A stretch of 64,000 nt of DNA from Spirochaetota bacterium (lineage in GTDB: Bacteria; Spirochaetota; UBA4802; JAFGDQ01), in assembly GCA_043803405.1 (NCBI GenBank), contig JAZDKB010000043.1, forward strand, positions 22,143-86,142, given 5' to 3'. Position 1 is the first letter of the stretch. Each line of letters opens with the position of its first letter. The translations under genes and the position numbers were made by a program. Below are positions 10,065 through 52,349 of the stretch, piece by piece. The notes beneath the pieces were generated by a model. That model saw only the letters and a list, made by a program, of their open reading frames with translations. It was not told the origin of the DNA and did no database searches.

Positions 10065-10109
10065 ACCAACCGTCACCTCCGAATGGTCTTACTTTTACTG
10101 CATAATCCA

Positions 10110-10796
10110 TCAATGAGTTTTAAAATAATTAAACATATTCCACGGAGCTTTTGCAGGGGGCATGCTTTTAAAAGAAAGCTCTTCATTTGAAACAGGATGA
10201 GTAAACGCAAGTTCAACGGACCACAGTGCGAGCTGCTGCCCGGGTTTATTAAGAGCAGCGCCGTATTTCTGGTCTCCCCATAACGGATTACCTATGTGCG
10301 AAAACTGCGCCCGTATCTGATGAGGCCTGCCTGTATGAAGATCGATTTTGATGAGGCTCAGGTTTTCCGTATGTTCGATTTCTTCGTATAACAGCAGGGC
10401 AAGCTTTGCTCCTTTTGCAGATTCATCAGCTATGCTGACGATATTTGTACGCTCGTCTTTCAGCAGAAAATGTCTCAGCTTATCATCCGGCTTTTCCGGC
10501 TTTCCATTCACTACAGCAAGATAAATCTTTTTGAATCTGCCGGAACGCATTTGCTCCGATAGCCGGGACGCGGCCTTGGATGTTTTTGCGAACGCCATTA
10601 CGCCTCCTGCAGGCCTGTCCAGCCTGTGCACAAGGCCAAGATAAACATTGCCTGGTTTATTATACCGTTTCTTTATATCTGCCTTAAGGAGAGTGAGCAT
10701 ATCGTCGTCATTCGACGAGTCCTTCTGGCTTGGGATGTTGACCGGCTTTTCAGCAACTATGATATGATTGTCTTCGAATATTATGCGGATCTTCAT
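10110..10796 (-). CDS. RluA/RluD-family RNA pseudouridine synthase
   Basis: HRLDRP catalytic motif, TGRPHQIR, GDQKYG. Confidence 0.92.
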   Translation of the reverse strand: MKIRIIFEDNHIIVAEKPVNIPSQKDSSNDDDMLTLLKADIKKRYNKPGNVYLGLVHRLDRPAGGVMAFAKTSKAASRLSEQMRSGRFKKIYLAVVNGKPEKPDDKLRHFLLKDERTNIVSIADESAKGAKLALLLYEEIEHTENLSLIKIDLHTGRPHQIRAQFSHIGNPLWGDQKYGAALNKPGQQLALWSVELAFTHPVSNEELSFKSMPPAKAPWNMFNYFKTH

Positions 10797-11662
10797 TTTT
10801 CATTTTCCCACCTGCCGTATATGCCGCAGGGGAGAACCAGACCGGACGCTGTTACGGGCAGCCCTACTTCGCCTGTTTTTATCCGGCCGCCGAATTTTTT
10901 CTGTACAAGCATTTTAAGAATATTTTCGAGCACTGTTGGAGAAAAGCCGGTAGTGTAGGAATTCACTAAAAAGAAAAGCGGTTTGGGAGACATTATATCA
11001 AGGCATTGTTCAATGAGGGAGTACAATGCGTCTTCAAGTTTCCATACTTCGCCGTCAGGGCCCCTGCCGTAGGAAGGCGGGTCCATGATGAGCGCGTCGT
11101 ACCGGCGGCCCCGTCTTTTTTCGCGCTTTACGAATTTGAACACATCGTCTGTTATAAAGCGCACCGGGTGATCCGCGAATCCTGAAAGAGTGAGGTTTTC
11201 CTTTGCCCAGCCGACCATGCTTTTTGCTGCATCCACGTGGCAGATCTCGGCTCCCGCTGAAGCTGCTGCTATAGTGGCAGCGCCTGTGTACGCGAAAAGA
11301 TTAATGAGCTTAACAGGGGGCTCTGCTGATTTTATTTTATTCGTTATCCACTGCCAGTTTACAGCCTGTTCAGGGAAAATGCCTGTGTGTTTAAAATCAG
11401 TAGGCCTGATATAAAAGATTAAATCTTTATATGATATTGTCCACCGCGGGGGAAGGAGGCGTTTGAATTCCCATCTCCCTCCGCCTTTCTGGCTTCTGTG
11501 GTAATGAGCATCTGTATTGTCCCATACATTTGCTTCATTATGCGCAGGCCACAGCACCTGGGGGTCGGGCCTTCTGAGAATAAATTCGCCCCAGCGTTCG
11601 AGCCTTTCGCCATTGCCAGTGTCTATGAGTTCGTATTCTTTCCAGTCGTGTGCTATAAGCAT
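10793..11662 (-). CDS. Class I SAM-dependent RNA methyltransferase (RlmI/RlmK-like)
   Basis: FKHTGIFPEQ, NLFAYTG, DPPSYGRG; 4-nt overlap with the RluA-family gene. Confidence 0.85.
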   Translation of the reverse strand: MLIAHDWKEYELIDTGNGERLERWGEFILRRPDPQVLWPAHNEANVWDNTDAHYHRSQKGGGRWEFKRLLPPRWTISYKDLIFYIRPTDFKHTGIFPEQAVNWQWITNKIKSAEPPVKLINLFAYTGAATIAAASAGAEICHVDAAKSMVGWAKENLTLSGFADHPVRFITDDVFKFVKREKRRGRRYDALIMDPPSYGRGPDGEVWKLEDALYSLIEQCLDIMSPKPLFFLVNSYTTGFSPTVLENILKMLVQKKFGGRIKTGEVGLPVTASGLVLPCGIYGRWENEK

Positions 11663-11888
11663 TTGCGGGATATGCCTCTTTGCCTGTATAATTCATCGCG
11701 TTTATGTTTTATTATTCTGTCGGAAAATAAGCCGATAATTTTAAATGCAATATTACATCTGACCTTTGTATCATTTTTACGGGATTCGTTTTTACAAATA
11801 TTATTTTCGATATTCTTCAATATAGACTCATTCATTATTTTAAATAAAATTCTTTTTAATGTTTGAGGAATCTAAATGTCCTCATATT

Positions 11889-35110: not shown

Positions 35111-37124
35111 GTTTACTTTTGTCGAAGATGAACTCTCTCACTCCGATGAAAATGCCCCTGTAAATTTTTTTAAAAACCGAATTAAAAAAATTGAATTACT
35201 TAAAGGAAAGTCCTTATCCCTTATAATCATAATATCATCAGTAGTTATCGCGATTGCACTTGTACTTGTTTTAATTAATTTTTTTTATAAAAAGCCGCAA
35301 ATTTTTAAACCTGCAGAACAAAGCAATATTCTTTCGTTTACCGAAAAAAAAGACATCCCTTCCGGCAAAACTTCAAACGTAAAACTAGAGAAAGGAAAAG
35401 AAAATTATTCCAGGGGATATTACACCAACGCTATCACATATTTCAATGAAGTGGTTGAATCCGATGCGTCTAATGCTGAGAAAGCAATTGCTTTAACTTA
35501 TATTGGTATAATTCACGACGACAGGAGCAATTATAGTAAAGCGATCGAGTATTACCAGAGGGCTCTGAAATACGATGATAAGAACGCGATCATATACAGA
35601 AATATGGCTATTGCCTACAGACATTTAAACGACTATGATTCGGCAGCAAAGACAATAAAGAAAGGCCTTGATATTGATCCGAATAATATACAGAATCTCA
35701 TTCTTTACGGAAATATTTTATACGAGCAGGGGAATTATAAAGACGCTATTTCCGTATATGAAGATGCGTTAAAGATAAATAATGACCCTGTTGCTTATCA
35801 TAATTTAGCGCTTGCTCATATTAAGACAGGGAAGGAGTCCCTGGCAATGGATTATCTTTTAAAAGCCGGCGCTGCGGATAAGGTTGGAAATGTTGCCCAT
35901 CTGGCATATTCCAAACTTGGCGTAATTTACATTGAGAGAAAGGATTTTGAATCTGCGGAAAAATATCTTAAAATGGCTGAATCCTTAAATCCGCGGGACC
36001 CCGTTGTCAGTTACAACCTTGGGATAGCATATCTTAAAATGAAGCAGCCGGATAAAGCCATCGTTGAATTTAAAAAGGCTGAGGAATTCGGCAAGAACGA
36101 TGAAAACCTGCTGGAAAATCTGGGGGAGACTTACTTTAGTTTAAATGATTATGATAAAAGCATTGAAGCATTTAGTAAACTGCTTATTACAAACAAGCGC
36201 AACATAAAAATTCTTTCACGGCTTGCGGAGGTTTATCACGAGAAGGGAGAGCCGAGGGAAGCCCTGGAGCTTTACAAACAGATTACCGTGCTTGAACCTG
36301 CTACGGAAAATGCACGGGTCGCTTACGCGAATATGGGTAACATACTTGACGATCTGGGCAGGCCGGATGAAGCTATTGAGATGTATAACAGTGCTCTTGC
36401 AATAAACGAAGATGACGACACGACTCTTTACAACATGGGTATTGTGTATAAAAACGCCGGCAAGCTTGAGTTCGCGGTTAAGTCATGGCGCAGGGCATCG
36501 GAACTGAATGCGGATGCGCCAAAGCCTTTAATGGCAATTGCGGGCATATATGAAGAAAAAAATTTTTACGATCTGGCTATAGAACAATATCAAAAGATTA
36601 TTAAACGCTGGGACAATATGCAGGAAGCTCATTTTAATCTTGGAGTCCTTTATTATAAAAAGAATCTTACGGATTATGCTAAGGAAGAATTTAAAAAAGT
36701 AATTGAACTCAATAAAAACAACGAGCTTGCTGCAAAGGCATACACAAATCTTGGGGTAATAATCAGTAAAAACGCTGGCAGCAATGAAAACTCATTTGAT
36801 GAAGCGCAGGGTTATATTCAGAAAGCTCTGCTGCAAAAACCGAATGATGCTGAAGCTCTCATTACGCTCGGCTCTATTTATTTTAAGAAAGGTATGCTTG
36901 AAAAGGCAATCGATACATTCAACATGGCGATTTCATCAACGAGGGATCCAAAAATTCTTGCTGAAGCTTACAATAATATCGGAAAATCTTATCACAGGAA
37001 GGGGCTTTATAAGAACGCGTTGACTGCTTTTACGCATGGCATTGACCAGGATCCTACTATGGAAGAAATCAGGATAAACCGCAAGGTGTCCATGCAGGCT
37101 TATGAAGAAGAATTGCGCAGATAA
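35088..37124 (+). CDS. Membrane-anchored tetratricopeptide repeat protein
   Basis: N-terminal TM helix followed by many TPR repeats. Confidence 0.85.
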   Translation: MFRKRKNRFTFVEDELSHSDENAPVNFFKNRIKKIELLKGKSLSLIIIISSVVIAIALVLVLINFFYKKPQIFKPAEQSNILSFTEKKDIPSGKTSNVKLEKGKENYSRGYYTNAITYFNEVVESDASNAEKAIALTYIGIIHDDRSNYSKAIEYYQRALKYDDKNAIIYRNMAIAYRHLNDYDSAAKTIKKGLDIDPNNIQNLILYGNILYEQGNYKDAISVYEDALKINNDPVAYHNLALAHIKTGKESLAMDYLLKAGAADKVGNVAHLAYSKLGVIYIERKDFESAEKYLKMAESLNPRDPVVSYNLGIAYLKMKQPDKAIVEFKKAEEFGKNDENLLENLGETYFSLNDYDKSIEAFSKLLITNKRNIKILSRLAEVYHEKGEPREALELYKQITVLEPATENARVAYANMGNILDDLGRPDEAIEMYNSALAINEDDDTTLYNMGIVYKNAGKLEFAVKSWRRASELNADAPKPLMAIAGIYEEKNFYDLAIEQYQKIIKRWDNMQEAHFNLGVLYYKKNLTDYAKEEFKKVIELNKNNELAAKAYTNLGVIISKNAGSNENSFDEAQGYIQKALLQKPNDAEALITLGSIYFKKGMLEKAIDTFNMAISSTRDPKILAEAYNNIGKSYHRKGLYKNALTAFTHGIDQDPTMEEIRINRKVSMQAYEEELRR

Positions 37125-40078: not shown

Positions 40079-41662
40079 ATGAAAGATTTTCTTGAGAAAT
40101 CGTTAAAAGTAATCCTTGAAGCATCAAAGACCGCAGCGGAAAAAACCGAACTTGCTAATTCCTTCCCGGATATCGCATCGCAGCAAACTCTTGTTTCACT
40201 TGTCGAATCTAAGCTTAAAAACCGGAAACTTATACTTGCATCTAACAGGGAACCCTATGTCCATATATATAAAGGCGAAAATATATCATGGTTTCGCTCT
40301 GCCGGAGGTTTGTCCGTAGCGCTGGATTCAATGGCTTCAGCCTGTAACGCAACCTGGGTTTGCCATGGCGACGGCAATGCGGATTTTAAAATGACCGACA
40401 GTAAGGGTGAAGTAAAGGTCCCGCCGGATAATCCTAAATATACTTTGAAAAGGATAAGGCTGTCTAAACAGGAAGTCGCGGAATACTATGAAGGGTTTTC
40501 GAATGAAACCTTGTGGCCTCTCTGCCACGTAAGTTATGTAAGGCCGAAATTTATATATAAATACTGGTTAACTTACCAGGAAGTAAACAGGAAATTTGCA
40601 AAAGCTATTCTTGAAGTAGCGACTTCCGACAGCATAGTATTTTTGCAGGATTATCATCTTTGCCTTGTTGCCAAATATCTAAAAGAAGAAATCCCGAATT
40701 TGACAACAGTGCTGTTCTGGCATATCCCATGGCCTAATCCTGAAATATTCAGGATTTGCCCATGGAAAAATGATATCCTTGAAGGTCTGCTTGCAAACGA
40801 TATAATAGGATTTCACCTGAAATATCATGCCGATAATTTTCTTGAAACTGTGGATCAGGAACTTGAGTCGCGCATTGACAGGGAAAGAATGCATATTGAA
40901 AAGAATCTGAGGCGTACAAGGATAAAAGCATATCCGATATCAATTGATTTTAAATCTATTTTTTTACAGGCAGAAGATTCCAAAATCAAGGAAACTTATA
41001 CTCAGAAAATGACCGAGTTAAGGCTAAAAAATGTTAAAATAGGGCTGGGGGTTGACAGGCTGGATTACACAAAAGGGATCCCTGAACGTCTTGATGCAAT
41101 TGAAAGGATGTTCGAAAAATATCCCGAACATGTAGGAAAGTTTACTTATGTTCAGATTGGCGTCCCAAGCCGGACACACATAGAAGATTATCAGTATGTA
41201 GTGAACGCGATTGAAACAAAAATATTACAAATAAATGAGAAATACAGAACCGATGAATGGGAGCCTGTAATATTTTTAAAGGGTCAGTATGATTTTGATG
41301 TTCTTGTCCCTTTCTATAAAATGGCGGATGTTTGCATAGTAAGTTCGCTTCATGATGGGATGAATCTTGTAGCAAAAGAATTTATAGCTGCATCCAGCAA
41401 TGACCGCGGGGTGCTTGTGCTTTCAAGCTTTACAGGGGCCGCACGGGAGCTTGAACACGCATTGCTTATTAATCCATACGATACTGAATCATTTGCAGAT
41501 ATACTGAATACAGCTCTTACCATGCCATACGAGGAGCAGAAAATGAGGATTGCCCGTATGAGGTTAAGAGTAGCAGAAAATAACATTTATACATGGGCTC
41601 AAAAAATTCTGAATGATGTAGTTATGCTGGCTGAGGATAATGCCGAAACTCTGCAGCGATAA
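40079..41662 (+). CDS. otsA: Trehalose-6-phosphate synthase (GT20)
   Basis: SNREP, QDYHL, HIPWP, VDRLDYTKGI, DGMNLVAKE. Confidence 0.93.
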   Translation: MKDFLEKSLKVILEASKTAAEKTELANSFPDIASQQTLVSLVESKLKNRKLILASNREPYVHIYKGENISWFRSAGGLSVALDSMASACNATWVCHGDGNADFKMTDSKGEVKVPPDNPKYTLKRIRLSKQEVAEYYEGFSNETLWPLCHVSYVRPKFIYKYWLTYQEVNRKFAKAILEVATSDSIVFLQDYHLCLVAKYLKEEIPNLTTVLFWHIPWPNPEIFRICPWKNDILEGLLANDIIGFHLKYHADNFLETVDQELESRIDRERMHIEKNLRRTRIKAYPISIDFKSIFLQAEDSKIKETYTQKMTELRLKNVKIGLGVDRLDYTKGIPERLDAIERMFEKYPEHVGKFTYVQIGVPSRTHIEDYQYVVNAIETKILQINEKYRTDEWEPVIFLKGQYDFDVLVPFYKMADVCIVSSLHDGMNLVAKEFIAASSNDRGVLVLSSFTGAARELEHALLINPYDTESFADILNTALTMPYEEQKMRIARMRLRVAENNIYTWAQKILNDVVMLAEDNAETLQR

Positions 41663-41664
41663 AA

Positions 41665-42468
41665 TTGAATAGAATAATGACTGAATACCTTTTTACATCT
41701 GATGCTTTAAATAAAGTAATTGAATCGCTGAGGATAAAGCCAAGAATACTTGCCTTTGATTTTGACGGAACACTGGTTCCTATTGCGGATTCGCCGGCAG
41801 GAGTCGTATTGCCCGTAAAACTGCCATATCTTTTAAAAAATCTGTCCGGGGACAAAGATACTGTTGTTTCAGTTATAAGCGGACGAAGCGTTCCGGAACT
41901 TGAAAGGATAATCGGGATACCGTCTATTATCTATTTCGGCAATCACGGGATTACATCCTCAATTGAGGAATTCGCGGCAAGCAAAGCGGATTTGCAAAAA
42001 TGGTCGCAGGAAGCTTTTAAGATTTATCAAAACCTATCATATCTTGAACAAAAATATAATGGATGTTTGATTGAAAACAAAGGGCCAGTTGTTTCAGTAC
42101 ATTATCGTAAAGTCGATGCTGCTATAATAGAGTCATTGCTTTTTGAAGTGGGAAAGATCGTTTCGGCATTTGATTTCAAAATTCAGAGCGGTAAAATGGT
42201 GTATGAATTAAAGCCGATGACCGGTTTTTCAAAAGGAACCGCACTTTTAAAACTCGCGACAAGCTCATTTGCCGGCTGGAGAAGAGGTGATCCATTTTTA
42301 TTTGCGGGTGATGATTTTACAGATGAAGACGGATTTAAGGTCATAAAAGACTTTGGAGTAAAAGCATACGGATTAAAAATAGGAGATGGAGAGACAACTG
42401 CGGACTATAGATTGTATGATGGCGAGATTTTAAAATTAATTGAAATGATTTTACAGGAGGAGTTATGA
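41665..42468 (+). CDS. otsB: Trehalose-6-phosphate phosphatase (HAD)
   Basis: DFDGTL, ISGR, GNHG, HYR, GDDFTDED. Confidence 0.92.
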   Translation: MNRIMTEYLFTSDALNKVIESLRIKPRILAFDFDGTLVPIADSPAGVVLPVKLPYLLKNLSGDKDTVVSVISGRSVPELERIIGIPSIIYFGNHGITSSIEEFAASKADLQKWSQEAFKIYQNLSYLEQKYNGCLIENKGPVVSVHYRKVDAAIIESLLFEVGKIVSAFDFKIQSGKMVYELKPMTGFSKGTALLKLATSSFAGWRRGDPFLFAGDDFTDEDGFKVIKDFGVKAYGLKIGDGETTADYRLYDGEILKLIEMILQEEL

Positions 42469-43163
42469 ACTTTTCATTTGATTCGATACTCGAGCCTCTG
42501 CGTTCAGTAGCTAACGACTTGTTATCATTCCTTCCGAAAATTATTGCAGCTGTGGCTGTTTTAATTGTGGGGTTTATTACATCATGGGCTTTAAAAAAAT
42601 TGACACTTCTTGTATGTAAAGCTCTTAAACTCGATAAAAAACTTTCGGATATCTGGATTTTCCGGCTCTGGTCAAGAAATAATATTAAGCATTTGCCCTC
42701 TGAAGCTTTATCCAATTTTATTTATTACTTTTTTTTATTTGTTTCCGCTCTGCTTGTTGTAAAGATTCTGGGCGGCAAAACAAGCGAGATGATACTTGAT
42801 TCCATGTTTGTAATAATACCCGGCGTTTTCAGTTTTATGCTTGTTCTTTTTCTGGGGTCGCTTCTGGCCATGTTTTTATCTTTTGTTGCACAAATTATGT
42901 TCACTACATCCAATATTAAGTACCCGTCATTCTGGGGAAAAGTGGTAGCATGGAGCATTTTTGGGATCGCCGCTGTAATTTCTCTGGAACATCTTGGAAT
43001 AGCCGGCAAACTGCTGTCTTTTATATTTGTGCTTGTACTGTCTATTCTGGGAGTCGCAATCGCTCTTGCTTTCGGACTGGGATGCAAGGAGCTTGCGCGT
43101 GAATTCCTTATTGAATTATTAAAAAAGAATAAAACAGAAAACGAAAAGAAAAAGAAAGAATAA
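42465..43163 (+). CDS. MscS-like TM-helix membrane protein
   Basis: FLPKIIAAV and ALAFGLGCKE TM-helix motifs; no cytoplasmic MscS cage domain. Confidence 0.7.
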   Translation: MNFSFDSILEPLRSVANDLLSFLPKIIAAVAVLIVGFITSWALKKLTLLVCKALKLDKKLSDIWIFRLWSRNNIKHLPSEALSNFIYYFFLFVSALLVVKILGGKTSEMILDSMFVIIPGVFSFMLVLFLGSLLAMFLSFVAQIMFTTSNIKYPSFWGKVVAWSIFGIAAVISLEHLGIAGKLLSFIFVLVLSILGVAIALAFGLGCKELAREFLIELLKKNKTENEKKKKE

Positions 43164-43252
43164 AAATCCGGCAAATAAGCAATTGGGAATGAATATAAGT
43201 TGACTTAATTTTAATCCAACAAATAAAAAACAAGAAAAAATCTGAAAAAATC

Positions 43253-43289
43253 TTGACGATTTTTGTATATTTTGCTATATTACCAAATA
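43253..43289 (+). promoter_or_regulatory. hgcA sigma-70 promoter overlapped by a putative ArsR-family operator
   Basis: TTGACG (43253)-N17-TATATT (43276) with extended -10 TG; imperfect palindrome TATTTTGCTATATTACCAAATA at 43268-43289. Confidence 0.7.
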
Positions 43290-43311
43290 GACAAATATAG
43301 GGAATTTTTTT

Positions 43312-44505
43312 ATGATACCGATAAAAATTGTTGATGGTCGCAGCGGGAAAAAAAACGTACAATCCTGCTGTGAGAATACTCAAAGCAGCTGTTCGCAGCC
43401 AGTCGATACAAGTACAAAAATTCAACTGCCTTTACATTTTGAAGCTATAGAGAAAAAACCTGAGTGGGTGTTGAGCATGGTTAATACGCCTGCAGGACAG
43501 ATTCCGCTGGTAAGCCCGGAATGGTCGAAGGCAGATCGCCGGGGATGCTTACGTTCGCGGCTCGGAGCTTTCCGCATGAGTTACAGCATACAGCCGGGCC
43601 TGTATGCGATCGGGTCTCCGGATGCCGGTTCGGACGTGTTCGTAAGCGCGAACTACAAACTGAGCTTCGATGTGCTGCGACGCAGTCTTGACGGATTAAG
43701 CGGATGGATTCTTGTGCTCGACACAAAAGGGATTAACGTATGGTGCGCCGCAGGCAAGGGCACTTTCGGTACAAATGAACTTATAAAGCAAATTATAAAT
43801 ACGGGGCTTGCTAAAATTGTTTCCCACAGAAGAATTATTGTGCCTCAGCTTGGAGCAGTCGGGGTTAAAGCTGCGGAAGTAAAAAAAGAGACCGGTTTTA
43901 ATATTCTGTTCGGACCGGTTGATGCAAAAGACATTAAAGAATATCTGAATTTAAAATATAAAGCATACCAGGAAATGAGAAGAGTAAAATTTTCCGTATT
44001 TAAAAGACTTGAGCTTACGCCCATTGAACTGTATCCTGCTCTTAAAAGATTTCTGTGGGCTGCGCTTATAATCCTTTTACTGTTTGGATTTGAACCAACA
44101 GGAATAATATTCCGGACTGCCTGGTTAGAGGGATGGCCATTTCTTTTGCTGTGCTTTGTGAGCATTCTTACAGGCGCATTTATTGCGCCTGTGCTTCTTC
44201 CGTTCATTCCGTTCAGGTCTTTTGCAATAAAGGGAATAATTACAGGATTGACAGCAGCGATACCGCTTGTGTATTTTAGTCCCGTATTCGGATATGATTC
44301 CGGTTTTGTTAAGGTATCGGCTGTGTTGCTGGCAGCTACCTTATCTTCATATCTGGCTTTGCAGTTTACCGGTGCAACCACATTCACAGGTATTTCGGGC
44401 GTAAAAAAAGAACTCAAACTGGCTTTGCCGCTTTACATAGCCGGAATAGCTATATCGGTAATTTTAATAGTGATTTATAAAATAAAATCCTGGGGTATTA
44501 TATGA
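43312..44505 (+). CDS. hgcA: Mercury methylation corrinoid protein HgcA
   Basis: Cap-helix motif GINVWCAAGKGTFG, ANYKLSFD, C-terminal TM helices with FTGATTFT...GVKKE; followed by hgcB. Confidence 0.96.
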   Translation: MIPIKIVDGRSGKKNVQSCCENTQSSCSQPVDTSTKIQLPLHFEAIEKKPEWVLSMVNTPAGQIPLVSPEWSKADRRGCLRSRLGAFRMSYSIQPGLYAIGSPDAGSDVFVSANYKLSFDVLRRSLDGLSGWILVLDTKGINVWCAAGKGTFGTNELIKQIINTGLAKIVSHRRIIVPQLGAVGVKAAEVKKETGFNILFGPVDAKDIKEYLNLKYKAYQEMRRVKFSVFKRLELTPIELYPALKRFLWAALIILLLFGFEPTGIIFRTAWLEGWPFLLLCFVSILTGAFIAPVLLPFIPFRSFAIKGIITGLTAAIPLVYFSPVFGYDSGFVKVSAVLLAATLSSYLALQFTGATTFTGISGVKKELKLALPLYIAGIAISVILIVIYKIKSWGII

Positions 44506-44804
44506 CTTATCTTAAAAGCGTAACAACGCTTGTTTATGATCCCGGAAAATGCACAGGCTGCGGTCGCTGTATTGAAGTTTGCCCGCGCGAAGTATTCGTG
44601 ATGCGCGACAAAAAAGCTGCGGTCACAGATAAAGACCGGTGCATGGAATGTGGCGCGTGCGCACTTAACTGCGAATTCGGCGCGATTACGGTAAACGCGG
44701 GAGTTGGCTGCGCAGCTGCAGTTATCCACAGCATACTTAAAGGCGGAGAGCCCGTATGCGGGTGCAGCAGCGAAAGCAGCGCAGGCAATGCCTCATGCTG
44801 TTAA
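44502..44804 (+). CDS. hgcB: Mercury methylation ferredoxin HgcB
   Basis: Two CxxCxxCxxxC motifs (including CMECGAC), GVGCA, terminal CC; ATGA overlap with hgcA. Confidence 0.95.
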   Translation: MTYLKSVTTLVYDPGKCTGCGRCIEVCPREVFVMRDKKAAVTDKDRCMECGACALNCEFGAITVNAGVGCAAAVIHSILKGGEPVCGCSSESSAGNASCC

Positions 44805-44816
44805 AGGAATAAAGCT

Positions 44817-45170
44817 ATGGCTACGGGAAAAAAATTACATCCGCAATATGAGGCGCGTGCAAATATAATTAAGGCGATCGGTCATCCGACAAGGCTTTTT
44901 ATAATTGAAGAGCTATATAAGGCTGAACATTGCGTTAACGAGCTGACGAAAATGATAGGCTCCGATGTTTCAACTGTGTCCAAGCATTTAAGCGTACTTA
45001 AGAGCTCAGGGCTTGTAACAGATGAGAAGCGCGGAACAAGCATCTATTATAAACTCCGTACGCGATGCATTATTGATTTTATTGATTGTATTGAAACAGT
45101 TATTAAAACAAAGGCTGAGGATGACATGCAGATCGTACAGTGCTGCGGGAGAAATTTTAAAATAAAATAG
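44817..45170 (+). CDS. ArsR/SmtB-family transcriptional regulator
   Basis: KAIGHPTRL, CVNEL, STVSKHLSVLK HTH; extra Cys residues (RCIIDFIDC, QCC). Confidence 0.9.
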   Translation: MATGKKLHPQYEARANIIKAIGHPTRLFIIEELYKAEHCVNELTKMIGSDVSTVSKHLSVLKSSGLVTDEKRGTSIYYKLRTRCIIDFIDCIETVIKTKAEDDMQIVQCCGRNFKIK

Positions 45171-45275
45171 AATAAAAAACCGGTTTTATAATTATTGTAA
45201 TGTAGTGTTTATGCAATAATACAATAAACAAGCTTATTCATAAGCGAAAACAACAAATTATTAAAGGAGTTTAAT

Positions 45276-45593
45276 ATGCTGGGAATATCGGATTCTGCCG
45301 TAAAACAATTTAAACAAATTCTTGAGGATTCGAATGCGTCCAAATCAGGAATACGTATTTTTATGTCCGGCCAGAGCTGCTGCGGGGTTTCATACGGCAT
45401 GGGCATAACTGAAAATGGAGACAAAAACGACCAACTGCTGGAAAAAGATGGTCTGAAAATTTTCATTGATTCTGTAATTTCCGAAGGCCTTTCAGAAGCA
45501 ACTATCGATTTCAATCAGCAGGGCTTTGTGATACAGGGAAATCCTTCATCAGGATGCTCATCGGGATGTTCATCCGGAGGATGCTGTTCGTAA
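45276..45593 (+). CDS. HesB/IscA-like protein with a Cys-rich tail
   Basis: ISDSAVK...GIRIF..SCCG.SYGM...DGLKIFID; C-terminal GCSSGCSSGGCCS; AAGGAG RBS. Confidence 0.85.
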   Translation: MLGISDSAVKQFKQILEDSNASKSGIRIFMSGQSCCGVSYGMGITENGDKNDQLLEKDGLKIFIDSVISEGLSEATIDFNQQGFVIQGNPSSGCSSGCSSGGCCS

Positions 45594-45749
45594 ATAGTGA
45601 AAAACTAATTACTCTGGTAATATTATACGGTTTTCAATATAATTTAGAGCAGTTTAGAGTAACAAATATTATTTCATCGGCTACTATTATTCAAAAATAA
45701 AATAATATAAGCTGGAGAAAACAAAGTGAATACTGATAGGAGATTAGTT

Positions 45750-46076
45750 ATGTCGCCGCAAATAAATCAGTGGGTTCGCCCTGCCTGAGACCGCCCGGAA
45801 GGCTGAGACCACTCAGCTGATGAATACCGTGTAGTATTCTTCCCGGACGGGTCAAAGACAGGACTAATAGGTTTAAACGCTTTATTTGAAGACGCTTACT
45901 TTGAAGGCAGGAAACCGGATAAGCTATTAGCAAAAGAAATAGTAAAGAAGCTGTCCGAAAGAAATTATGTTCCTCCGAACAGCATAAATGAATACGAATA
46001 TATTGTTAATAGTCTCTATGAAGAATATTTCGAAGTAAATGAACGCAATAAAAAGGATGCCTTGAAAGAGAAGTAG
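45750..46076 (+). CDS. Putative 108-aa selenoprotein with two in-frame UGA (Sec13, Sec19); not in the ORF track
   Basis: AGGAG RBS 7 nt before the ATG. MSPQINQWVRPA-U-DRPEG-U-DHSADEYRVVFFPDGSKTGLIGLNALFEDAYFEGRKP...RNYVPP...EKstop. The frame stays open for 89 codons after the second TGA, and a hairpin GAATAC-CGTGTA-GTATTC follows it. Confidence 0.7.
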
Positions 46077-46168
46077 TGTCAAAATAAAAGGACAAAACTT
46101 TTTATATAGTATAAAAATAAAAAATTAAATGTTCTATATTGCAGTAAAAAATTACTTTTTGTTTTTAG

Positions 46169-46190
46169 TATTTTGCTATTTTGGCAAATA
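46169..46190 (+). promoter_or_regulatory. Second copy of the putative ArsR-family operator, upstream of the ArsP-like permease
   Basis: TATTTTGCTATTTTGGCAAATA, 19/22 identical to 43268-43289. Confidence 0.65.
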
Positions 46191-46294
46191 GTAATTATAA
46201 AATCCACCGGGCTGATTATCTCAATTGTGTCAGGCCGGGATAAAGGAAAGGTAATTTCTATAAATGATTAATCTAAAAGCAAGGATCTGAAAAT

Positions 46295-47299
46295 ATGTTT
46301 ATATTCGGGTGGTTAAATAATCAGCTTTTAAGAATGGAATGGCTATCCAGCCTGACGAAAATACTGGTAGAAAATGTATTTGGTCTAAGTATGTCAGAAA
46401 GGATTGGAGGCAGCATACATTTTTTTATATATGATGTTATCAAAATATTTATTTTATTATCTGTATTGATATTCTGTATTTCATACGTGCAAAGTTTTTT
46501 TCCGCCCGAGAGGACGAGAAAAATACTGGGAAAATATAATGGCCTAACGGCCAATATATTTGGTGCGCTATTTGGAACAATAACACCTTTTTGCTCTTGT
46601 TCTTCAATACCTCTTTTTATAGGGTTTACCAACGCAGGACTCCCTATAGGTGTTACCTTTTCGTTTTTAATATCCTCTCCCCTTGTCGATCTGGCATCGT
46701 TAATTTTAATTGCCAGTATATTCAACTGGAAAATTGCGATTGCTTATGTGTTTGTTGGGCTTATACTTGCTGTTATTGGCGGAACCATTATAAGCAGGGC
46801 GAAGCTGGAGAAATATGTAGAGCCTTTCGTTTTCAGTAATAAAATGGCAGATATAGAGCAGGAAAAATTGACTGCCAGGGACAGAATAAATTTTGCGAAA
46901 GACCAGGTAAGGGACATTGTAAAAAGAGTCTGGATGTATATCCTCATAGGAGTCGGGATCGGGGCTGCTATTCATAACTGGATTCCTGAAAGTGTGATTT
47001 CAATGGTGCTTGGCAATGATAAATGGTATTCAGTGCTTGTAGCAACAATCATAGGTATTCCGATGTATGCTGATATATTTGGCACTTTGCCTATTGCAGA
47101 AGCCCTGGTTTTAAAAGGAGTAGGACTTGGAACAGCATTATCTTTCATGATGGCAGTTACGGCGCTTTCACTTCCTTCAATGATCATGCTGAAAAACGTA
47201 GTCAAAACAAAATTATTAGTAATATTCTTCGGCGTTGTATCAATTGGAATAATAATCATTGGATATGTTTTTAATATTTTTGGAAATTTGTTAGTGTAA
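46295..47299 (+). CDS. ArsP/DUF318-family permease
   Basis: TPFCSCSSIP, FLISSP, GIPMY, ALSLPSMI. Confidence 0.88.
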   Translation: MFIFGWLNNQLLRMEWLSSLTKILVENVFGLSMSERIGGSIHFFIYDVIKIFILLSVLIFCISYVQSFFPPERTRKILGKYNGLTANIFGALFGTITPFCSCSSIPLFIGFTNAGLPIGVTFSFLISSPLVDLASLILIASIFNWKIAIAYVFVGLILAVIGGTIISRAKLEKYVEPFVFSNKMADIEQEKLTARDRINFAKDQVRDIVKRVWMYILIGVGIGAAIHNWIPESVISMVLGNDKWYSVLVATIIGIPMYADIFGTLPIAEALVLKGVGLGTALSFMMAVTALSLPSMIMLKNVVKTKLLVIFFGVVSIGIIIIGYVFNIFGNLLV

Positions 47300-47401
47300 C
47301 TTGAACTAATAATAACTTGTTAAAATGTATGTAAATATATCCGGCTGACAATCTGTCTTAGGAAAGCGGATAAAAGAAATAAACTAATAAGGGGTAAACT
47401 C

Positions 47402-47635
47402 ATGAAAAAAATAGAAATTCTCGGGACCGGTTGTGCTAAATGTGAAAAGCTTGAAGATCTCGTCAGAAAAGCCGCAGGTGAAATTGGTGTTGATGCCGAA
47501 ATTATTAAAGTTAAGGATATTAAAAAGATAATGGAATATGGAGTCATGACAACGCCTGCGCTTGTGGTGGATGGTGAAGTTATGGTTGCGGGAAGAGTGC
47601 CATCCATCGAAGATGTAAAAAAATATATCAAATGA
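47402..47635 (+). CDS. Small redox-active disulfide protein (MTH895/TM0996-like thioredoxin)
   Basis: ILGTGCAKC, GVMTTPALVVDG. Confidence 0.9.
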   Translation: MKKIEILGTGCAKCEKLEDLVRKAAGEIGVDAEIIKVKDIKKIMEYGVMTTPALVVDGEVMVAGRVPSIEDVKKYIK

Positions 47636-47730
47636 ATGAGTCCGGTTGATAGCTCAATAAAAAAACTTGTAATTTGTATTGAATATAAATTGAATATTGC
47701 AGGTATATAATTTTTAGAGGAGAGTGTTGT

Positions 47731-48258
47731 ATGAAGTCTTTAAAAAGGTTCGCAGTTTTTTTTGTCATAATCGCCTTTGCCCTTATAGCTGGCAACGTAG
47801 AACCCGATCATTCATCTAAATGCGGCTTCGAAACATCATTCCCATTTTCTCTTTTCACAAAAATATTTGAAACTGCGGCGGAGAGTCCTGCCGGCGATAC
47901 TCACAGACATGAAACAGATGGAGCAGCTTCCCTTCTGGGCGCTGTTGCATACGCGCAGAAAAAAGCCGCGAATATAAAAGTCACGTTTATTGAACTCGGT
48001 TCGGTCAACTGCATTCCGTGCAGAATGATGCAGCCTGTAATGAAGCAGGTTGAAGAAAAATACAGCGATCAGGTTAAAGTCATTTTTTATGATGTATGGA
48101 CGGAAAATGGACGACCATTTGGGCAAGTATACAAAATCAGGGCAATTCCCACGCAGATTTTCCTTGATTCTAATGGAAAGGAATACTTTCGTCATGAAGG
48201 ATTTTATCCCTTTGAGGAACTTGAAAAAATACTGAAAAAGGGCGGCGTACGCCGATGA
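47731..48258 (+). CDS. Exported thioredoxin-family protein
   Basis: Signal peptide; ELGSVNCIPC; IPTQIF...RHEG. Confidence 0.85.
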   Translation: MKSLKRFAVFFVIIAFALIAGNVEPDHSSKCGFETSFPFSLFTKIFETAAESPAGDTHRHETDGAASLLGAVAYAQKKAANIKVTFIELGSVNCIPCRMMQPVMKQVEEKYSDQVKVIFYDVWTENGRPFGQVYKIRAIPTQIFLDSNGKEYFRHEGFYPFEELEKILKKGGVRR

Positions 48259-48974
48259 TACTTGATTTTTTCACAGCGCTTTCGAACATGCTTTCTTCTT
48301 CACCCGGTATAGCGCTTACGGGATCAGTTCTATGGGGCATAGCGAGCATAATACTGTCTCCGTGCCATCTCGCAAGCATTCCGCTCGTGGTCGGCTTTAT
48401 CGATAAGCAGGGGCAGATAACAACAGGCAGGGCGGCAGCGATATCCAGCCTGTTTTCCTTCGGCATTCTTATCACAATTGGACTGGTAGGCGTGATTACA
48501 GGCATACTTGGAAGAATGCTGGGCGATGTTGGGCAGTACGGAAATATCGCAGTGTCTGTTATTCTGATAATTATAGGCATGTACTTGACGGGCATTATCC
48601 GCCTTCCTTTTCTTGAAAACGGAATAAACCAGCCCGGCTTTAAAAAGAAGGGCCTTATTGCGGCATTTTTTTTGGGTCTTATATTCGGGCTCGCGCTGGG
48701 GCCCTGCACATTCGCTTATATGGCTCCGATGCTTGGGGTTGCATTTAACGTAGCGTCAACAAACCTCGGTTATGCTGTGGCGCTTGTTGCTGCGTACGCA
48801 TTAGGGCATTGCTCGGTCATAATAATCGCGGGAACATTTACCGAGACTGTAAATCACTTGCTCCGCTGGAACGAAAACTCAAAAGGCGCGCTTATTGTTA
48901 AAAAGATATGCGGAACCCTGGTGATCATAGCAGGCATTTATATGATGATAACTTCAGTTAGAACATTTTATTAA
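48255..48974 (+). CDS. ccdA: CcdA/DsbD-family transmembrane electron transporter
   Basis: LSPCHL and GPCT in a multi-TM protein. Confidence 0.85.
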   Translation: MILDFFTALSNMLSSSPGIALTGSVLWGIASIILSPCHLASIPLVVGFIDKQGQITTGRAAAISSLFSFGILITIGLVGVITGILGRMLGDVGQYGNIAVSVILIIIGMYLTGIIRLPFLENGINQPGFKKKGLIAAFFLGLIFGLALGPCTFAYMAPMLGVAFNVASTNLGYAVALVAAYALGHCSVIIIAGTFTETVNHLLRWNENSKGALIVKKICGTLVIIAGIYMMITSVRTFY

Positions 48975-49001
48975 ACTAAAACATGCTTAAACGAAATATT
49001 T

Positions 49002-50252
49002 ATGAAAAATAAATCTAATATATTTTCATGGATAATAATAACGGCTTCGCTTGCCGGTCTTGCTTTGAGCGTGCTTTTGATCTTCGAATATTTCGGCGTA
49101 TCGCCTGCCGCAGCCGATGCTGTATGCTCTCGCGGGCGCGGAGGCATTAATGCGTGCACCATTGTTTCGGCAAGCCGCTTCGCTGCTTTGAGGGGAGTGC
49201 CGCTCATTGGCGATTTACCTGTAGCAGTTTTTGGATTTGTATTTTACGGCTTTATTGCAGCGCTTGTCATTTTACAATTTTTCCGGAAAAACAGCAATGA
49301 TACACTTCAAATGCATGCCGTCATTTTAGTTCTGTCAGTAGCAGCTCTTCTAAGCGATATCTTTCTATATTTTATTTCCATATTTATAATTAAGTTCGTC
49401 TGCCCTCTCTGCATTATGACTTACGCAGCAACAGCGGTCATACTGTTATTTTCGATTATACTGGTTAAGAGCAGTAAAGATTCTGCAGAAGGATCATTTA
49501 TCGAAAAAATGAAAGATTATCTTAGAAAAGAAATCCTGCTATTCGCAGTTATCGCTGTTGCTCTCGCAGCAGCCGGAATAAGCATTGGCGTAAGCGCGCG
49601 CATGATTGCGCAAACAAAGGAATCCTCGACTTATGAAGAACGATTGAAAGGCGCCATACGCCGGTACGAAACTGCAAAGGCCGCTACTATTGATTTAAAA
49701 AATAGTATCTATACCGGCAAACAGGATGCCCCTGTAAGTTTCGTTGTATTCTTTGATTTTACTTGCAGCCATTGCAGCGAAGAAATGCTGATACTTGAAG
49801 ACCTGTTAAAAAAATATGAAAATGCTATTGCAATTTCATTTAAAAATTTTCCATTGAACGGAGACTGCACTGAACTCGAAAACAGTAAAGCAGACAGCGA
49901 TGCAGAAAGTTGCATTGCTGCTGCAGCAGGTTTATGCGCGGACCGTCAGGGAAAATTCATGGAATATGCAAAACTGCTTTTTAAGAATTATCATAATGAA
50001 AAGATCGGTTTTACAAAAAAATCGGTACGGAACGCAGCTCAGACAGCAGGCTTAAACATACTGGGTTTTGACACCTGCTTTTTATCAAAAGAGATAAAAG
50101 ACCAGCTGTTGCTGGAAATAAAAGAAGCAGAAAAAATCGGGGTAGAGAGTACTCCGGCTATATTTCTCAATGGAAGACTATTGGCCGGAAAATCCCGCAA
50201 AGCGGATATGCTCGAAGGGCTGGTGCAGTATTGCCTAAAAAGAAATAAATAA
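49002..50252 (+). CDS. VKOR-domain / DsbA-like thioredoxin fusion
   Basis: C...C..V.AS loop cysteines, CPLC, then FDFTCSHC, FPLNGDC and STPAIF. Confidence 0.85.
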   Translation: MKNKSNIFSWIIITASLAGLALSVLLIFEYFGVSPAAADAVCSRGRGGINACTIVSASRFAALRGVPLIGDLPVAVFGFVFYGFIAALVILQFFRKNSNDTLQMHAVILVLSVAALLSDIFLYFISIFIIKFVCPLCIMTYAATAVILLFSIILVKSSKDSAEGSFIEKMKDYLRKEILLFAVIAVALAAAGISIGVSARMIAQTKESSTYEERLKGAIRRYETAKAATIDLKNSIYTGKQDAPVSFVVFFDFTCSHCSEEMLILEDLLKKYENAIAISFKNFPLNGDCTELENSKADSDAESCIAAAAGLCADRQGKFMEYAKLLFKNYHNEKIGFTKKSVRNAAQTAGLNILGFDTCFLSKEIKDQLLLEIKEAEKIGVESTPAIFLNGRLLAGKSRKADMLEGLVQYCLKRNK

Positions 50253-50285
50253 ATTTTAATAATTATAATTTTTAGGAGAAATAAA

Positions 50286-51335
50286 ATGTCCGATTCAGTA
50301 ACAAAAAAACTTTCTTTTCTTGACCGTTATTTAACTCTATGGATATTCCTTGCCATGGCAATAGGCGTAGGACTTGGATATTTTGTTCCTTCAACCGCAG
50401 CCTTCTGGAACCAGTTCCAGAGCGGCACAACCAATATCCCCATTGCTATTGGCCTTATACTCATGATGTACCCGCCTCTCGCAAAAGTAAAGTATGAAGA
50501 GCTCGGTGACGTATTCAGAAACTGGAAAATACTTCTGCTGTCTCTCGTGCAAAACTGGATAATTGGGCCTGTGCTGATGTTCTTTCTTGCAATCACCTTC
50601 CTTGCCGGATACCCGGAATATATGGTAGGCCTAATAATGATAGGCCTCGCGCGATGCATCGCAATGGTAATAGTGTGGAACGAACTCGCGTGCGGAGATA
50701 CCGAGTACGCAGCAGGGCTTGTCGCATTTAACAGCATTTTTCAGGTACTTTTTTTCAGCGTGTATGCTTGGTTCTTCATAACAGTACTGCCTCCGATGTT
50801 CGGGCTTAAGGGCAGCGCAGTGGACATTACAATAGGCCAGATCGCGGAAAGCGTCTTTATTTATCTCGGTATACCTTTTATTGCAGGAATAATCACGAGA
50901 TTCACGCTTATCAAATTAAAAAACAAAGTATGGTATCACTCAAAATTTATTCCCAGGATAAGCCCGATCACCCTTATAGCGCTTCTGTTTACGATTGTCG
51001 TTATGTTCAGCCTCAAAGGCGAATACATAGTAAAAATACCCATGGACGTTGTACGCATCGCAATTCCGCTTTTAATATATTTTATTGTAATGTTTCTGTT
51101 AAGCTTTTTCATGAGCAAAAAAGTCGGAGCCGATTATCCGAAATCAGCTACCCTTTCTTTCACTGCGGCAAGCAACAACTTTGAGCTTGCAATAGCAGTA
51201 GCTGTCGCTGTTTTCGGAATCAATTCGGGAGCTGCTTTTGCCGCAGTTATAGGCCCGCTGGTTGAAGTCCCTGTGCTTATCGGGCTTGTGAATGTGGCGC
51301 TGTATTTCAGAAAGAAATACTTTGCAAAGGCTTAA
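50286..51335 (+). CDS. acr3: ACR3-family arsenite efflux transporter
   Basis: [40 protein letters not shown]. Confidence 0.95.
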
Positions 51336-51356
51336 GCAACTAAGGGGTAAAATACA

Positions 51357-51470
51357 ATCCAAAAAAGAATTATAAAACTCAGTTTAATTGCTGCAGGTGC
51401 ATTACTGTCAACCGCGTTCTTATCCGCGCAGCCCTCGATTCATTTTGAAAAACTGGAACACGATTTCGGC
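51357..51470 (+). pseudogene. Truncated DUF1573-like exported protein remnant
   Basis: AAGGGG RBS, ATC in place of ATG, signal peptide, then AQPSIHFEKLEHDFG; the sequence then becomes AT-rich junk. Confidence 0.55.
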
Positions 51471-51605
51471 CTACAGATAAGACCTTTAAATATTATAATT
51501 ATTAATATTTGGAACCATTATTAAAATGAAAGGTCTAAGAAACTATATTCGACTTGCGTTTTTCATCTAAACAATTATAATTATTTACGCGTTGCCGGAG
51601 GCATT

Positions 51606-52349
51606 ATGGAACTTATTCACGCTGACGATTTAAAAAAGAATTACCCTGTAGGCGAAATAACCGTATCCGCGCTAAAGGGCTTGAGTTTCTCGATTGAGAC
51701 TTCTTCGTTTATTTCGTTCGTCGGGCCTTCAGGAAGCGGCAAGACCACGCTTCTCAACATTCTCGGCTGTCTCGATACCCCGACAAGCGGAAATGTCCTG
51801 ATAGACGGAACCGACATTTTAAAACTAAACAGAAATGAAAGAGCTGATTTTCGCGGGCAGAATATAGGTTTTATTTTTCAGGATTTTAACCTTATGCCGG
51901 TGCTCACTGTTTTTGAGAATATTGAATATCCGCTGATAATGATACAAAACGTGCAAAAGGATGAACGTATAAAACGCGTCAGCAAACTCCTTACTGAGGT
52001 CGGGATGGAAGATCAAAAGGACAAGTACCCTGACCAGATATCCGGCGGGCAGAAGCAGCGCGTGGCCATCGCCCGCGCCCTCGCGACAAATCCGAAAATA
52101 GTGCTCGCGGACGAACCCACTGCCAACCTCGACCATGAAACCGCTTACAAGGTCATCGGGATCATGAAAAAAATGAAGGACGAGTTCGGCACTACTTTTA
52201 TTTTTTCCACTCACGACCAGAAAATAGTCGGCGAGGCAGAGATAATTTACACGCTTGAAGACGGCCTGCTGACAGGGAGAAAGGTTATCACGCGAAAGAA
52301 AGTAAAGAAACAATCGATAGGAGGGAAAGCTCATGCAAAGCATAATTAA
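51606..52349 (+). CDS. ABC transporter ATP-binding protein (LolD/MacB-like)
   Basis: [30 protein letters not shown]. Confidence 0.93.

Follow-up and report, generated by a model that had tools for sequence, protein, structure and literature searches.

Gene content of the hgcAB region

The 64,000-nt stretch of DNA analysed here (the window; contig JAZDKB010000043.1 of assembly GCA_043803405.1, or G000:C43:22143-86142) comes from a draft Spirochaetota genome of 3.98 Mb in 54 contigs that is 94% complete, and carries at 43253..51335, on the + strand, a run of eleven genes from hgcA through acr3 that places the mercury-methylation pair hgcAB beside a gene for an ArsR-type repressor, arsenic-export genes and thiol-redox genes (Table 1). 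Genes were identified from open reading frames (ORFs) and from profile scores against curated cut-offs (NCBIfam, TIGR, Pfam), and on this basis all eleven genes listed in a preliminary description of the stretch are present where it placed them. Its spirochaete assignment is likewise borne out, by three FlaA sheath-protein genes over cut-off, against 0 of 14 control genomes, and by nearest HgcA relatives that carry Spirochaetota or Leptospirales labels.

Table 1. Promoter, operators and genes of the region studied, in window coordinates (profile scores in bits, cut-offs in brackets)
Feature	Position	Strand	Length (aa)	Evidence and motifs
Promoter P1 of hgcA	43253..43281	+		TTGACG, 17 nt, TATATT, TG-extended; 10/12 matches; best + strand sigma-70-like site in 42900-51800
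Operator O1, operator-like palindrome	43269..43290	+		imperfect 7-6-7, half-sites ATTTTGC / CCAAAT, over P1 -10 box; repeat family D6
hgcA, corrinoid protein	43312..44505	+	397	NF040863 397.5 (275); NVWCAAGK at residue 142; N-terminal Cys19-Cys20
hgcB, 2x[4Fe-4S] ferredoxin	44502..44804	+	100	NF040864 117.3 (99); Cys99-Cys100 end
arsR, ArsR/SmtB repressor	44817..45170	+	117	NF033788 82.5 (55), PF01022 44.1 (22); Cys39, Cys84, Cys91, Cys109-Cys110
HesB/IscA-like A-type carrier	45276..45593	+	105	TIGR00049 61.1 (58.8); Cys35-Cys36, Cys-rich C-terminal tail
Small double-selenocysteine protein (candidate)	45750..46076	+	108	TGA read as selenocysteine (U) at 45786-45788 (U13) and 45804-45806 (U19)
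Operator O2, second palindrome copy	46170..46191	+		104 nt before arsP; repeat family D6
arsP, ArsP_1-family permease	46295..47299	+	334	PF03773 239
MTH895/ArsE-family thioredoxin-like protein	47402..47635	+	77	TIGR00412 110.8 (62); CxxC residues 11-14
Second thioredoxin, hydrophobic N-terminus	47731..48258	+	175	PF13098, PF00085; CxxC residues 94-97
CcdA/DsbD-type membrane thiol electron transporter	48255..48974	+	239	PF02683 43.5; 4-nt overlap with thioredoxin gene
VKOR-DsbA fusion	49002..50252	+	416	PF07884, PF13462, PF01323
acr3, arsenite efflux transporter	50286..51335	+	349	TIGR00832 460.9 (282.8)

HgcA is present over cut-off in one copy only in the genome, and its cap helix, NVWCAAGK with Cys145, matches the motif N(V/I)WCA(A/G)GK that reportedly carries the cobalt-ligand Cys; HgcB has both CX2CX2CX3C motifs (Cys 17/20/23/27 and 47/50/53/57) ahead of its C-terminal Cys pair. 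Methylmercury formation by this HgcAB is predicted from the genes. As described before, hgcA and hgcB overlap (by 4 nt), and 12 nt separate the hgcB stop from the start of arsR; beyond arsR the gaps are 105 nt (to the hesB-like gene), 156 nt (to the small selenocysteine ORF) and 218 nt (to arsP), then 102, 95, -4, 27 and 33 nt. Vicinal Cys pairs recur along the cluster, in HgcA (19-20), HgcB (99-100), ArsR (109-110) and the HesB-like protein (35-36 and 103-104).

By its predicted products the cluster is an ars operon as usually defined (arsR plus an arsenite efflux pump, arsC being optional). Its acr3, ArsE-like thioredoxin and ArsR of this clade are each the sole copy in the genome (acr3 as a single tblastn match), other ArsR-like matches there being at most 35% identical to the cluster ArsR. 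The cluster holds no arsC or arsM, as had been stated, and in the whole 94% complete genome neither ArsM (best 70 vs 263 bits) nor pI258-type ArsC (best 59.5 vs 174 bits) was found over cut-off and Grx-type ArsC gave zero matches. The ArsP_1 permease scores under every NCBIfam equivalog cut-off compared, SaoE and SO_0444 included, and methylarsenite (MAs(III)) efflux by it is only putative; the HesB-like protein scores under the cut-offs of the selenoprotein-type HesB models NF038090 and TIGR01911. A scan of 42900-51800 with Rfam, at E up to 1, returned zero matches.

Two further features were noted in this genome. Downstream of acr3, 51326-51351 repeats the ribosome-binding stretch 47373-47398 that precedes the ArsE-like gene (repeat D12), and is followed by a short open frame that begins like a signal peptide but lacks a canonical start codon and may be a gene remnant. 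Elsewhere, at G000:C4:93827-94543 on the - strand, a 316-aa open frame joins an ArsR HTH_5 domain to a methyltransferase-like part and resembles the SahR-type ArsR4 of Pseudodesulfovibrio mercurii ND132.

A palindrome shared by the hgcA and arsP promoters

The start coordinate of the preliminary description, 43253, coincides with the -35 hexamer of the best sigma-70-like promoter of the region, and the -10 box of that promoter lies inside a palindrome whose second copy precedes arsP. When the 21-nt core of this operator-like palindrome was sought with at most 1 mismatch on both strands of the 3.98 Mb genome, 2 sites only were found, the one before hgcA and the one before arsP. Since the search pattern came from the window copies themselves, it is the conservation across genomes that provides independent support. 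We could align 10 sites in 6 genomes, each beside an ArsR orthologue of the same clade. The palindrome precedes hgcA, at the same spacing to a TTGAC -35 box, in the surveyed HgcA loci L003, L004 and L050 and in G376, a genome of the same genus, where HgcA is 55-60% (the three loci) and 63% (G376) identical to that of the window by tblastn, in a setting of diverged flanking DNA. In G183, a genome of a sister genus, it stands before arsR itself, and in G376 also before a second ArsR gene, arsR2; a variant of it precedes arsP in both of these genomes, there without a TTGAC box at that spacing. Of the 10 aligned promoters, 7 retain the box at this spacing.

Judged by these alignments, the site travels with the ArsR clade whether hgcAB or arsR comes first. 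Palindromic operators at the regulated promoters, conserved along with the regulator, are what is expected of an ArsR regulon and are what we find here, with binding itself predicted. Because the window genome has one ArsR of this clade, we infer that this protein is the most economical binder of both O1 and O2.

Operator-like sites with 2 mismatches occur elsewhere in the genome at C13:45599, C48:43486 and C6:131425, the first of them within 10 kb of an ArsP-like fragment (36335-36892) and an HgcB-like ferredoxin (41512-41685). The arsR-hesB gap contains a perfect 8-nt inverted repeat, TTATTGTA (45192-45199) and TACAATAA (45220-45227), 20 nt apart; it is distinct from the ArsR-type palindrome and may serve as a further operator or form a hairpin in the RNA.

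Candidate sensor residues of ArsR

Orthologues of the window ArsR, 69-81% identical, directly follow hgcB in L003, L004, L050 and G376. Among these five hgcB-linked proteins, the window included, Cys39 and Cys84 are each present in 5/5 and the C-terminal CC in 4/4 that are complete, the ArsR of L004 being cut by the contig end before its C-terminus. The conserved contexts are E-H/R-C-V-N-E-L in helix 3, which contains Cys39, and Q-C-C-G at the C-terminus, and residues of the recognition helix are near-identical across both ArsR sub-clades. Two types of As(III) site serve for comparison: the R773 type, with the triad ELCVCDLC in helix 3, and the Acidithiobacillus (A. ferrooxidans) type, with a C-terminal CC plus a third Cys. 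Cys39, Cys84 or Cys91 might complete the C-terminal CC site of the window protein.

Transcription units

Co-transcription of hgcAB with the downstream arsR, proposed in the preliminary description, is very likely: the gap is 12 nt, no terminator-like site was found in any + strand gap of the cluster, and Logan contigs from a groundwater metatranscriptome (library X2), matching the window at 99% identity or more, cover 43348-44122, 44497-44705 and 44694-44842, the last of which crosses the hgcB stop and enters arsR by 26 nt. Cover by X2 ends at 44842 and leaves the rest of the cluster uncovered, a lack of cover that is not evidence, and the run word shares of 0.07-0.14 permit no inference about habitat or strain; a further run, X4, yielded no matching contig. 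In L003 acr3 starts 28 nt after arsR, giving an apparent hgcA-hgcB-arsR-acr3 operon.

The same description had hgcAB leading the co-oriented cluster; read as one long operon, this is not supported. We recognise at least two promoter-operator units, with the three gaps noted above before the hesB-like gene, the small selenocysteine ORF and arsP; a single 11-gene operon as the default is ruled down by the second operator and these 105-218 nt gaps, read-through being possible.

Distribution of the arrangement and HgcA phylogeny

The survey covered 80 HgcA loci, one per species-level genome, in which ArsR was sought by tblastn at E 1e-5 with the window protein, a search that misses divergent ArsR. 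So defined, ArsR directly follows hgcB in 3 of 72 loci with downstream room (L003, L004 and L050), to which G376 and the window are added, and is encoded no more than 700 nt upstream of hgcA in 17 of 73 loci with upstream room, there 31-43% identical to the window ArsR. Acr3 is adjacent in 15/80 loci and at least one ars or thiol gene lies in 35/80. In a quick maximum-likelihood tree of 81 HgcA sequences, from which rows with fewer than 300 matched residues had been removed beforehand, the window, G376, L003, L004 and L050 form one clade (Shimodaira-Hasegawa approximate likelihood-ratio test (SH-aLRT) support 99), and the same five loci, and no others, combine the operator with an arsR that follows hgcB; among the surveyed loci the arsR-after-hgcB form is, by this tree, confined to one HgcA clade.

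A HesB-like orthologue, 59% identical, also follows the hgcB-linked gene arsR1 in G376. Because tblastn of the small protein and of HesB against the 80 HgcA loci gave no match at E 1e-5, both appear specific to the bacterial family to which the window genome belongs. In a module of arsR2, a permease and a thioredoxin, L050, from a spirochaete metagenome-assembled genome, has at 10152-10571, where the window has other genes, a Cys-rich 139-aa protein with a CC start and a GGGCCS end.

G183, from the same bacterial family and a sister genus, has the same ArsR-arsP-trx-trx-ccdA genes and the small selenoprotein, with hgcAB on the same contig and convergent to the cluster (locus L098, G183:C34:16000-35000, at 9594-12903). 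This hgcAB sits behind a DsbD gene and a gene for a Cys-rich 163-aa protein that is MarR-like by eye only, and its HgcA is 41% identical to that of the window. In the tree this HgcA groups with a Desulfatiglans and the Bacillota sequences (SH-aLRT 96 and 100), across the deepest split from that of the window, so that two unrelated hgcAB lineages lie beside the same cluster in one bacterial family; on this phylogeny the hgcAB of G183 looks like a second, independent capture.

A small protein with two candidate selenocysteines

The 'Sec ORF' of the preliminary description, 45750-46076, does contain two TGA codons in frame, codons 13 and 19, giving U-x5-U, and has an AGGAG 7 nt upstream of its ATG. 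The genome encodes the machinery of selenocysteine insertion, with the tRNA gene tRNA-SeC (C26:8475-8566), selA (511 bits) and selB (316.7 bits) side by side, and selB is over cut-off in G376, G108 and G183. An exhaustive HMMER search with a limit of E 1e-3 yielded 70 relatives, of which 7 reach E 1e-10 or better, where a word-indexed search yielded 1. The two U residues align with the N-terminal Cys dyad of this protein family, which mostly reads CC and then A/V/I-P-P. Counted over the 16 residues that precede the first strand, at least two Cys occur in 28 of 34 relatives, one Cys in 5 and no Cys in 1. U-x4-U is found in G376, in G183 and in one copy of G108, each with an ATG and a Shine-Dalgarno sequence 28-30 codons upstream, and the second G108 copy is a Cys form, C-V-P-Y-C. 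With U/Cys alignment, UGA kept in orthologues whose frame is open and conserved, and tRNA-Sec, SelA and SelB encoded, the ORF shows these marks of a bacterial selenoprotein gene. Such genes are truncated or missed by gene callers.

Starting at the first UGA, a 65-nt stretch of RNA has a folding energy of -25.2 kcal/mol (z = -3.9 vs shuffles), a value obtained by folding alone and not from a model of the selenocysteine insertion sequence; hairpins follow the second UGA in 4/4 loci, a number of sequences too small for covariation. With the family alignment as input, AlphaFold (mean predicted local distance difference test score 81.7) gives a disordered tail that contains the dyad, then a beta-hairpin and three helices. 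Scans of the small protein and its family (35 members) with Pfam and NCBIfam found no family, only single chance-level matches (E about 0.006-0.007); Foldseek against the PDB gave no significant match (best E 0.21), ESM Atlas no usable match for the relative P0002, and a wide VIA-align search, with a best Z of 6.0 to generic three-helix/homeodomain-like rows below its noise guidance, allowed no fold to be assigned.

Of 401 genomes searched in the phylum, 4 encode the protein family; they include G000 and all belong to the same bacterial family as the window genome. In three of them (G000, G376 and G183) the gene is part of the hgcAB/ars cluster or adjoins it. In metagenomes it directly follows acr3 in L115-L117 and stands beside arsR-arsP-trx3 in L118; these are the 4 loci with ars genes among the 24 metagenome loci of the protein family, three of them probably one organism and 12 of the 24 being shorter than 3 kb. 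Cys-form members elsewhere lie near genes for Old Yellow Enzyme, PadR and FMN-reductase and once near a SelD-like gene: in L120, at 6928-8294, a Cys-form member directly follows AIRS/AIRS_C (SelD-like) and catalase-peroxidase genes. Dyad and context suggest that the small protein may act as a ligand of soft metal(loid)s or electrophiles.

A possible functional counterpart is the arsenic metallochaperone ArsD, with its Cys12-Cys13-Cys18 site. Both are small, cytosolic and encoded in ars clusters, with a vicinal thiol cluster near residue 12-19, which would be a likeness in function only; the small protein differs in having no sequence match to ArsD and in its predicted beta-hairpin and three helices, which are not thioredoxin-like.

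Seen against published selenoprotein families, it is a candidate double-selenocysteine protein, from an as yet unnamed family whose tail carries Cys-Cys. Haft and Gwadz 2022 (bioRxiv 10.1101/2022.07.06.499078), in the sections drawn on here, describe CU/CC motifs in HgcA and HgcB, with CU in most HgcA, and the likeness lies in Sec or vicinal Cys on the flexible ends of organometal-linked proteins, the window HgcA being of the CC form. The small protein differs from that motif, its two Sec being 4-5 residues apart and not CU, and it is not among the eight families of that paper. A motif look-up in a 2026 selenoproteome review (PMC13188914) and a literature search on hgcA and selenocysteine found no small UxxxxU family like this, which is not proof of novelty; the table of the review has UxxxxU for one family only, the rhodanese/DsbD fusion TsoB. 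In the window HgcA, Cys19-Cys20 (43366-43371), the non-selenium form of the Haft and Gwadz CU motif, is followed by Cys27, and at this N-terminal position the HgcA of L003 and L050 reads CCAPP, the short motif of the small-protein family tail.

Discussion

Taken together, these observations are best explained, in our judgement probably and short of certainty, by one repressor-controlled metalloid/thiol-stress regulon of two adjacent units that share ArsR. Unit 1 would consist of P1/O1-hgcA-hgcB-arsR, possibly extending into the hesB-like gene, which follows arsR1 in G376 too, and would be self-regulating because the repressor gene comes last. Unit 2 would consist of O2-arsP and the ArsE-like thioredoxin gene, probably continuing through trx-ccdA-VKOR/DsbA-acr3. 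An ArsR dimer seated on the 7-6-7 palindrome over the -10 box would block RNA polymerase; ArsR would be released when Cys39 together with Cys109-Cys110 binds a thiophilic metalloid, As(III) or methyl-As(III) being most likely, and HgcAB would then be induced jointly with the arsenic exporters. Between the units, the small protein, with its flexible N-terminal tail and two selenocysteines, would offer a diselenol ligand for soft metal(loid)s. Arsenite or methylarsenite is the most likely inducer by context only, since acr3, arsP and arsE are the outputs and acr3 in L003 stands in the apparent operon. Of the earlier claim that hgcAB is part of an arsenic regulon, the common palindrome with the arsP promoter thus supports the regulon, but the As(III)/organoarsenical inducer that it names is conjectural.

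The closest known system is that of Pseudodesulfovibrio mercurii ND132. The consulted part of Gionfriddo et al. 2022 (bioRxiv 10.1101/2022.10.17.512643) reports that an upstream ArsR2 controls hgcAB and answers to As and S-adenosylhomocysteine, that hgcAB is co-expressed with ars operons, that methylarsenicals were not detected in that strain and that ArsR-hgcAB pairs are found in Spirochaetes (Table S4), a table that may already contain the present arrangement. As in ND132 arsR2-hgcA-hgcB, an ArsR/SmtB gene accompanies hgcAB, co-transcribed there and very likely so here. In ND132, however, that source places the regulator upstream, with a four-Cys site and no ars gene beside hgcAB, whereas in the window the regulator comes last, has Cys39 and a C-terminal CC, and hgcAB has arsP, an arsE-like gene and acr3 as neighbours, with which it shares the operator. 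The ND132 ArsR5 operon, an organoarsenical module of the arsR-arsP-arsE type, likewise has, in the same portion of the source, ArsR, an ArsP_1 permease and a PF13192 thioredoxin-like protein in a row, and differs from the window in that here Trx-CcdA-VKOR/DsbA and acr3 are added and the repressor gene lies behind hgcAB.

Linkage of hgcAB to arsenic-resistance genes has itself been described: extracts of McDaniel et al. 2020 (PMC7438021) list acr3, arsC, arsM and arsR as flanking hgcAB, and those of Gionfriddo et al. 2020 (bioRxiv 10.1101/2020.02.03.933291) place arsR and arsB downstream of hgcAB on one hot-spring contig, so that arsR is once downstream there too. These extracts treat neighbourhoods and describe no operator, whereas in the window a conserved operator joins two units. 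The idea of an hgcAB-ars regulon, with which the preliminary description began, is therefore supported here, but ArsR control, adjacent ars genes and a downstream arsR had already been published. What is new is a regulator-last hgcAB operon with a conserved operator that ties hgcAB to arsP and acr3, the presence beside this cluster of a second, unrelated hgcAB lineage in a sister genus, and the candidate double-selenocysteine protein family.

Several points weigh against the two-unit arsenic regulon. Its main support is comparative, with ArsR binding and hgcAB induction predicted here from sequence. The R773-type triad is incomplete in this ArsR, which has EHCVNEL and thus the first Cys (Cys39) only, and the C-terminal triad type is represented by its CC (109-110) alone, with no third Cys after it; the closest solved structure by sequence is BigR, a sulfide/redox sensor (E 2.3e-10). 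Uniqueness of the operator in the genome is partly circular, the pattern having been built from both window copies, part of its conservation could be promoter conservation given the -10 box inside the palindrome, sites of the arsP type lack a recognisable -35 box at equal spacing, and the second ArsR paralogue of G376 makes the pairing of paralogue to site there ambiguous. The 26 nt by which the X2 contig enters arsR are fewer than the 31 nt per side required for a bridge and are a hint only; contigs cannot prove a single transcript and RNA libraries can contain DNA. In ND132, by the portion of the 2022 preprint cited above (bioRxiv 10.1101/2022.10.17.512643), Hg does not induce hgcA and loss of hgcAB brings no significant drop in As resistance.

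Some of these points would suit an otherwise identical architecture that answers to a different thiophilic signal, Hg(II), Cd/Zn, persulfide or thiol oxidation, as a general soft-metal/thiol-stress regulon in which acr3 is one output among others. This we consider unlikely, though it deserves to be taken seriously: the closest solved ArsR relatives, BigR and NolR, are not arsenic sensors, neither canonical As(III) Cys triad is complete, 4 of the 11 cluster genes encode thiol-disulfide proteins, both CC and UU dyads have an affinity for Hg(II) no lower than that for As(III), and members of the Cys-Cys-tail family elsewhere keep the company of Old Yellow Enzyme, PadR and FMN-reductase genes, with ars genes at only the 4 of 24 metagenome loci noted above. 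However, the regulon holds the genome's sole acr3 together with an ArsP/ArsE pair, the same kind of module as the ND132 ArsR5 operon, acr3 of L003 is joined to the hgcAB-arsR operon, and hgcA of ND132 is induced by As and not by Hg.

It is improbable that hgcAB-arsR and the ars/thiol genes are mere neighbours under independent control, the palindrome serving a different regulator or reflecting a likeness of AT-rich promoters. The 105-218 nt gaps between arsR, hesB, the selenocysteine ORF and arsP would be compatible with that, as would the two matches at up to 3 mismatches that also arose in 2 of 100 shuffles of the window, in what is a weak test, and the 24 metagenome loci of the small-protein family, among which a site with at most 1 mismatch was found in L105 only, far from ars genes, and none at the arsR-acr3 of L115-L117, where the small protein is encoded too. 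Set against this are the confinement of the palindrome, at up to 1 mismatch, to these two promoters of the genome, its conservation at 10 promoters in 6 genomes, always by the ArsR orthologue of the clade, and half-sites that lie outside the -10 hexamer. That the juxtaposition is a chimera of assembly or binning is scarcely credible: the genome is a 54-contig draft and the independent DNA contigs are short (151-328 nt), but those contigs, from two other runs, span the hgcB-arsR, arsR-hesB and O2-arsP junctions at 99% identity or more, GC is even across the region (0.35-0.43), G183 has hgcAB and ars/thiol genes on one contig, and the order hgcA-hgcB-arsR-hesB ... arsP-trx-trx-ccdA-VKOR/DsbA is found on one contig in G376 of the same genus.

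A bolder extension of the regulon, which we regard as a long shot, is that HgcAB is a working part of metalloid defence whose substrate is handed over by selenium, through a U-x4/5-U diselenol metallochaperone. The small protein would capture a soft metal(loid), be it As(III), Hg(II) or one akin to them, and relay it over the Cys pairs of the HgcA N-terminus, the HgcB C-terminus and the HesB-like tail to a receiver that would be either the corrinoid methyl donor or the exporters ArsP and Acr3. In its boldest form HgcAB would carry out an ArsM-independent methylation whose product is exported by ArsP, a reading invoked because the genome has no ArsM or ArsC and because two unrelated hgcAB lineages lie beside the same cluster.

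The control of hgcAB expression and the native role of HgcAB are questions in mercury biogeochemistry that this locus addresses with a compact system, in which one promoter-operator, one repressor gene and arsenic exporters are found in 8 kb. The architecture of the two-unit regulon is well supported by comparison among genomes, and because two independent hgcAB lineages appear to have been captured beside the same cluster, we argue that the linkage has been selected and is not accidental. The candidate double-selenocysteine family would join the short list of selenium-bearing proteins that handle metal(loid)s. If the regulon is as proposed, hgcAB transcript levels in these groundwater spirochaetes should depend on arsenic and not on mercury, and hgcA transcript counts from the field would need to be read with arsenic in mind.

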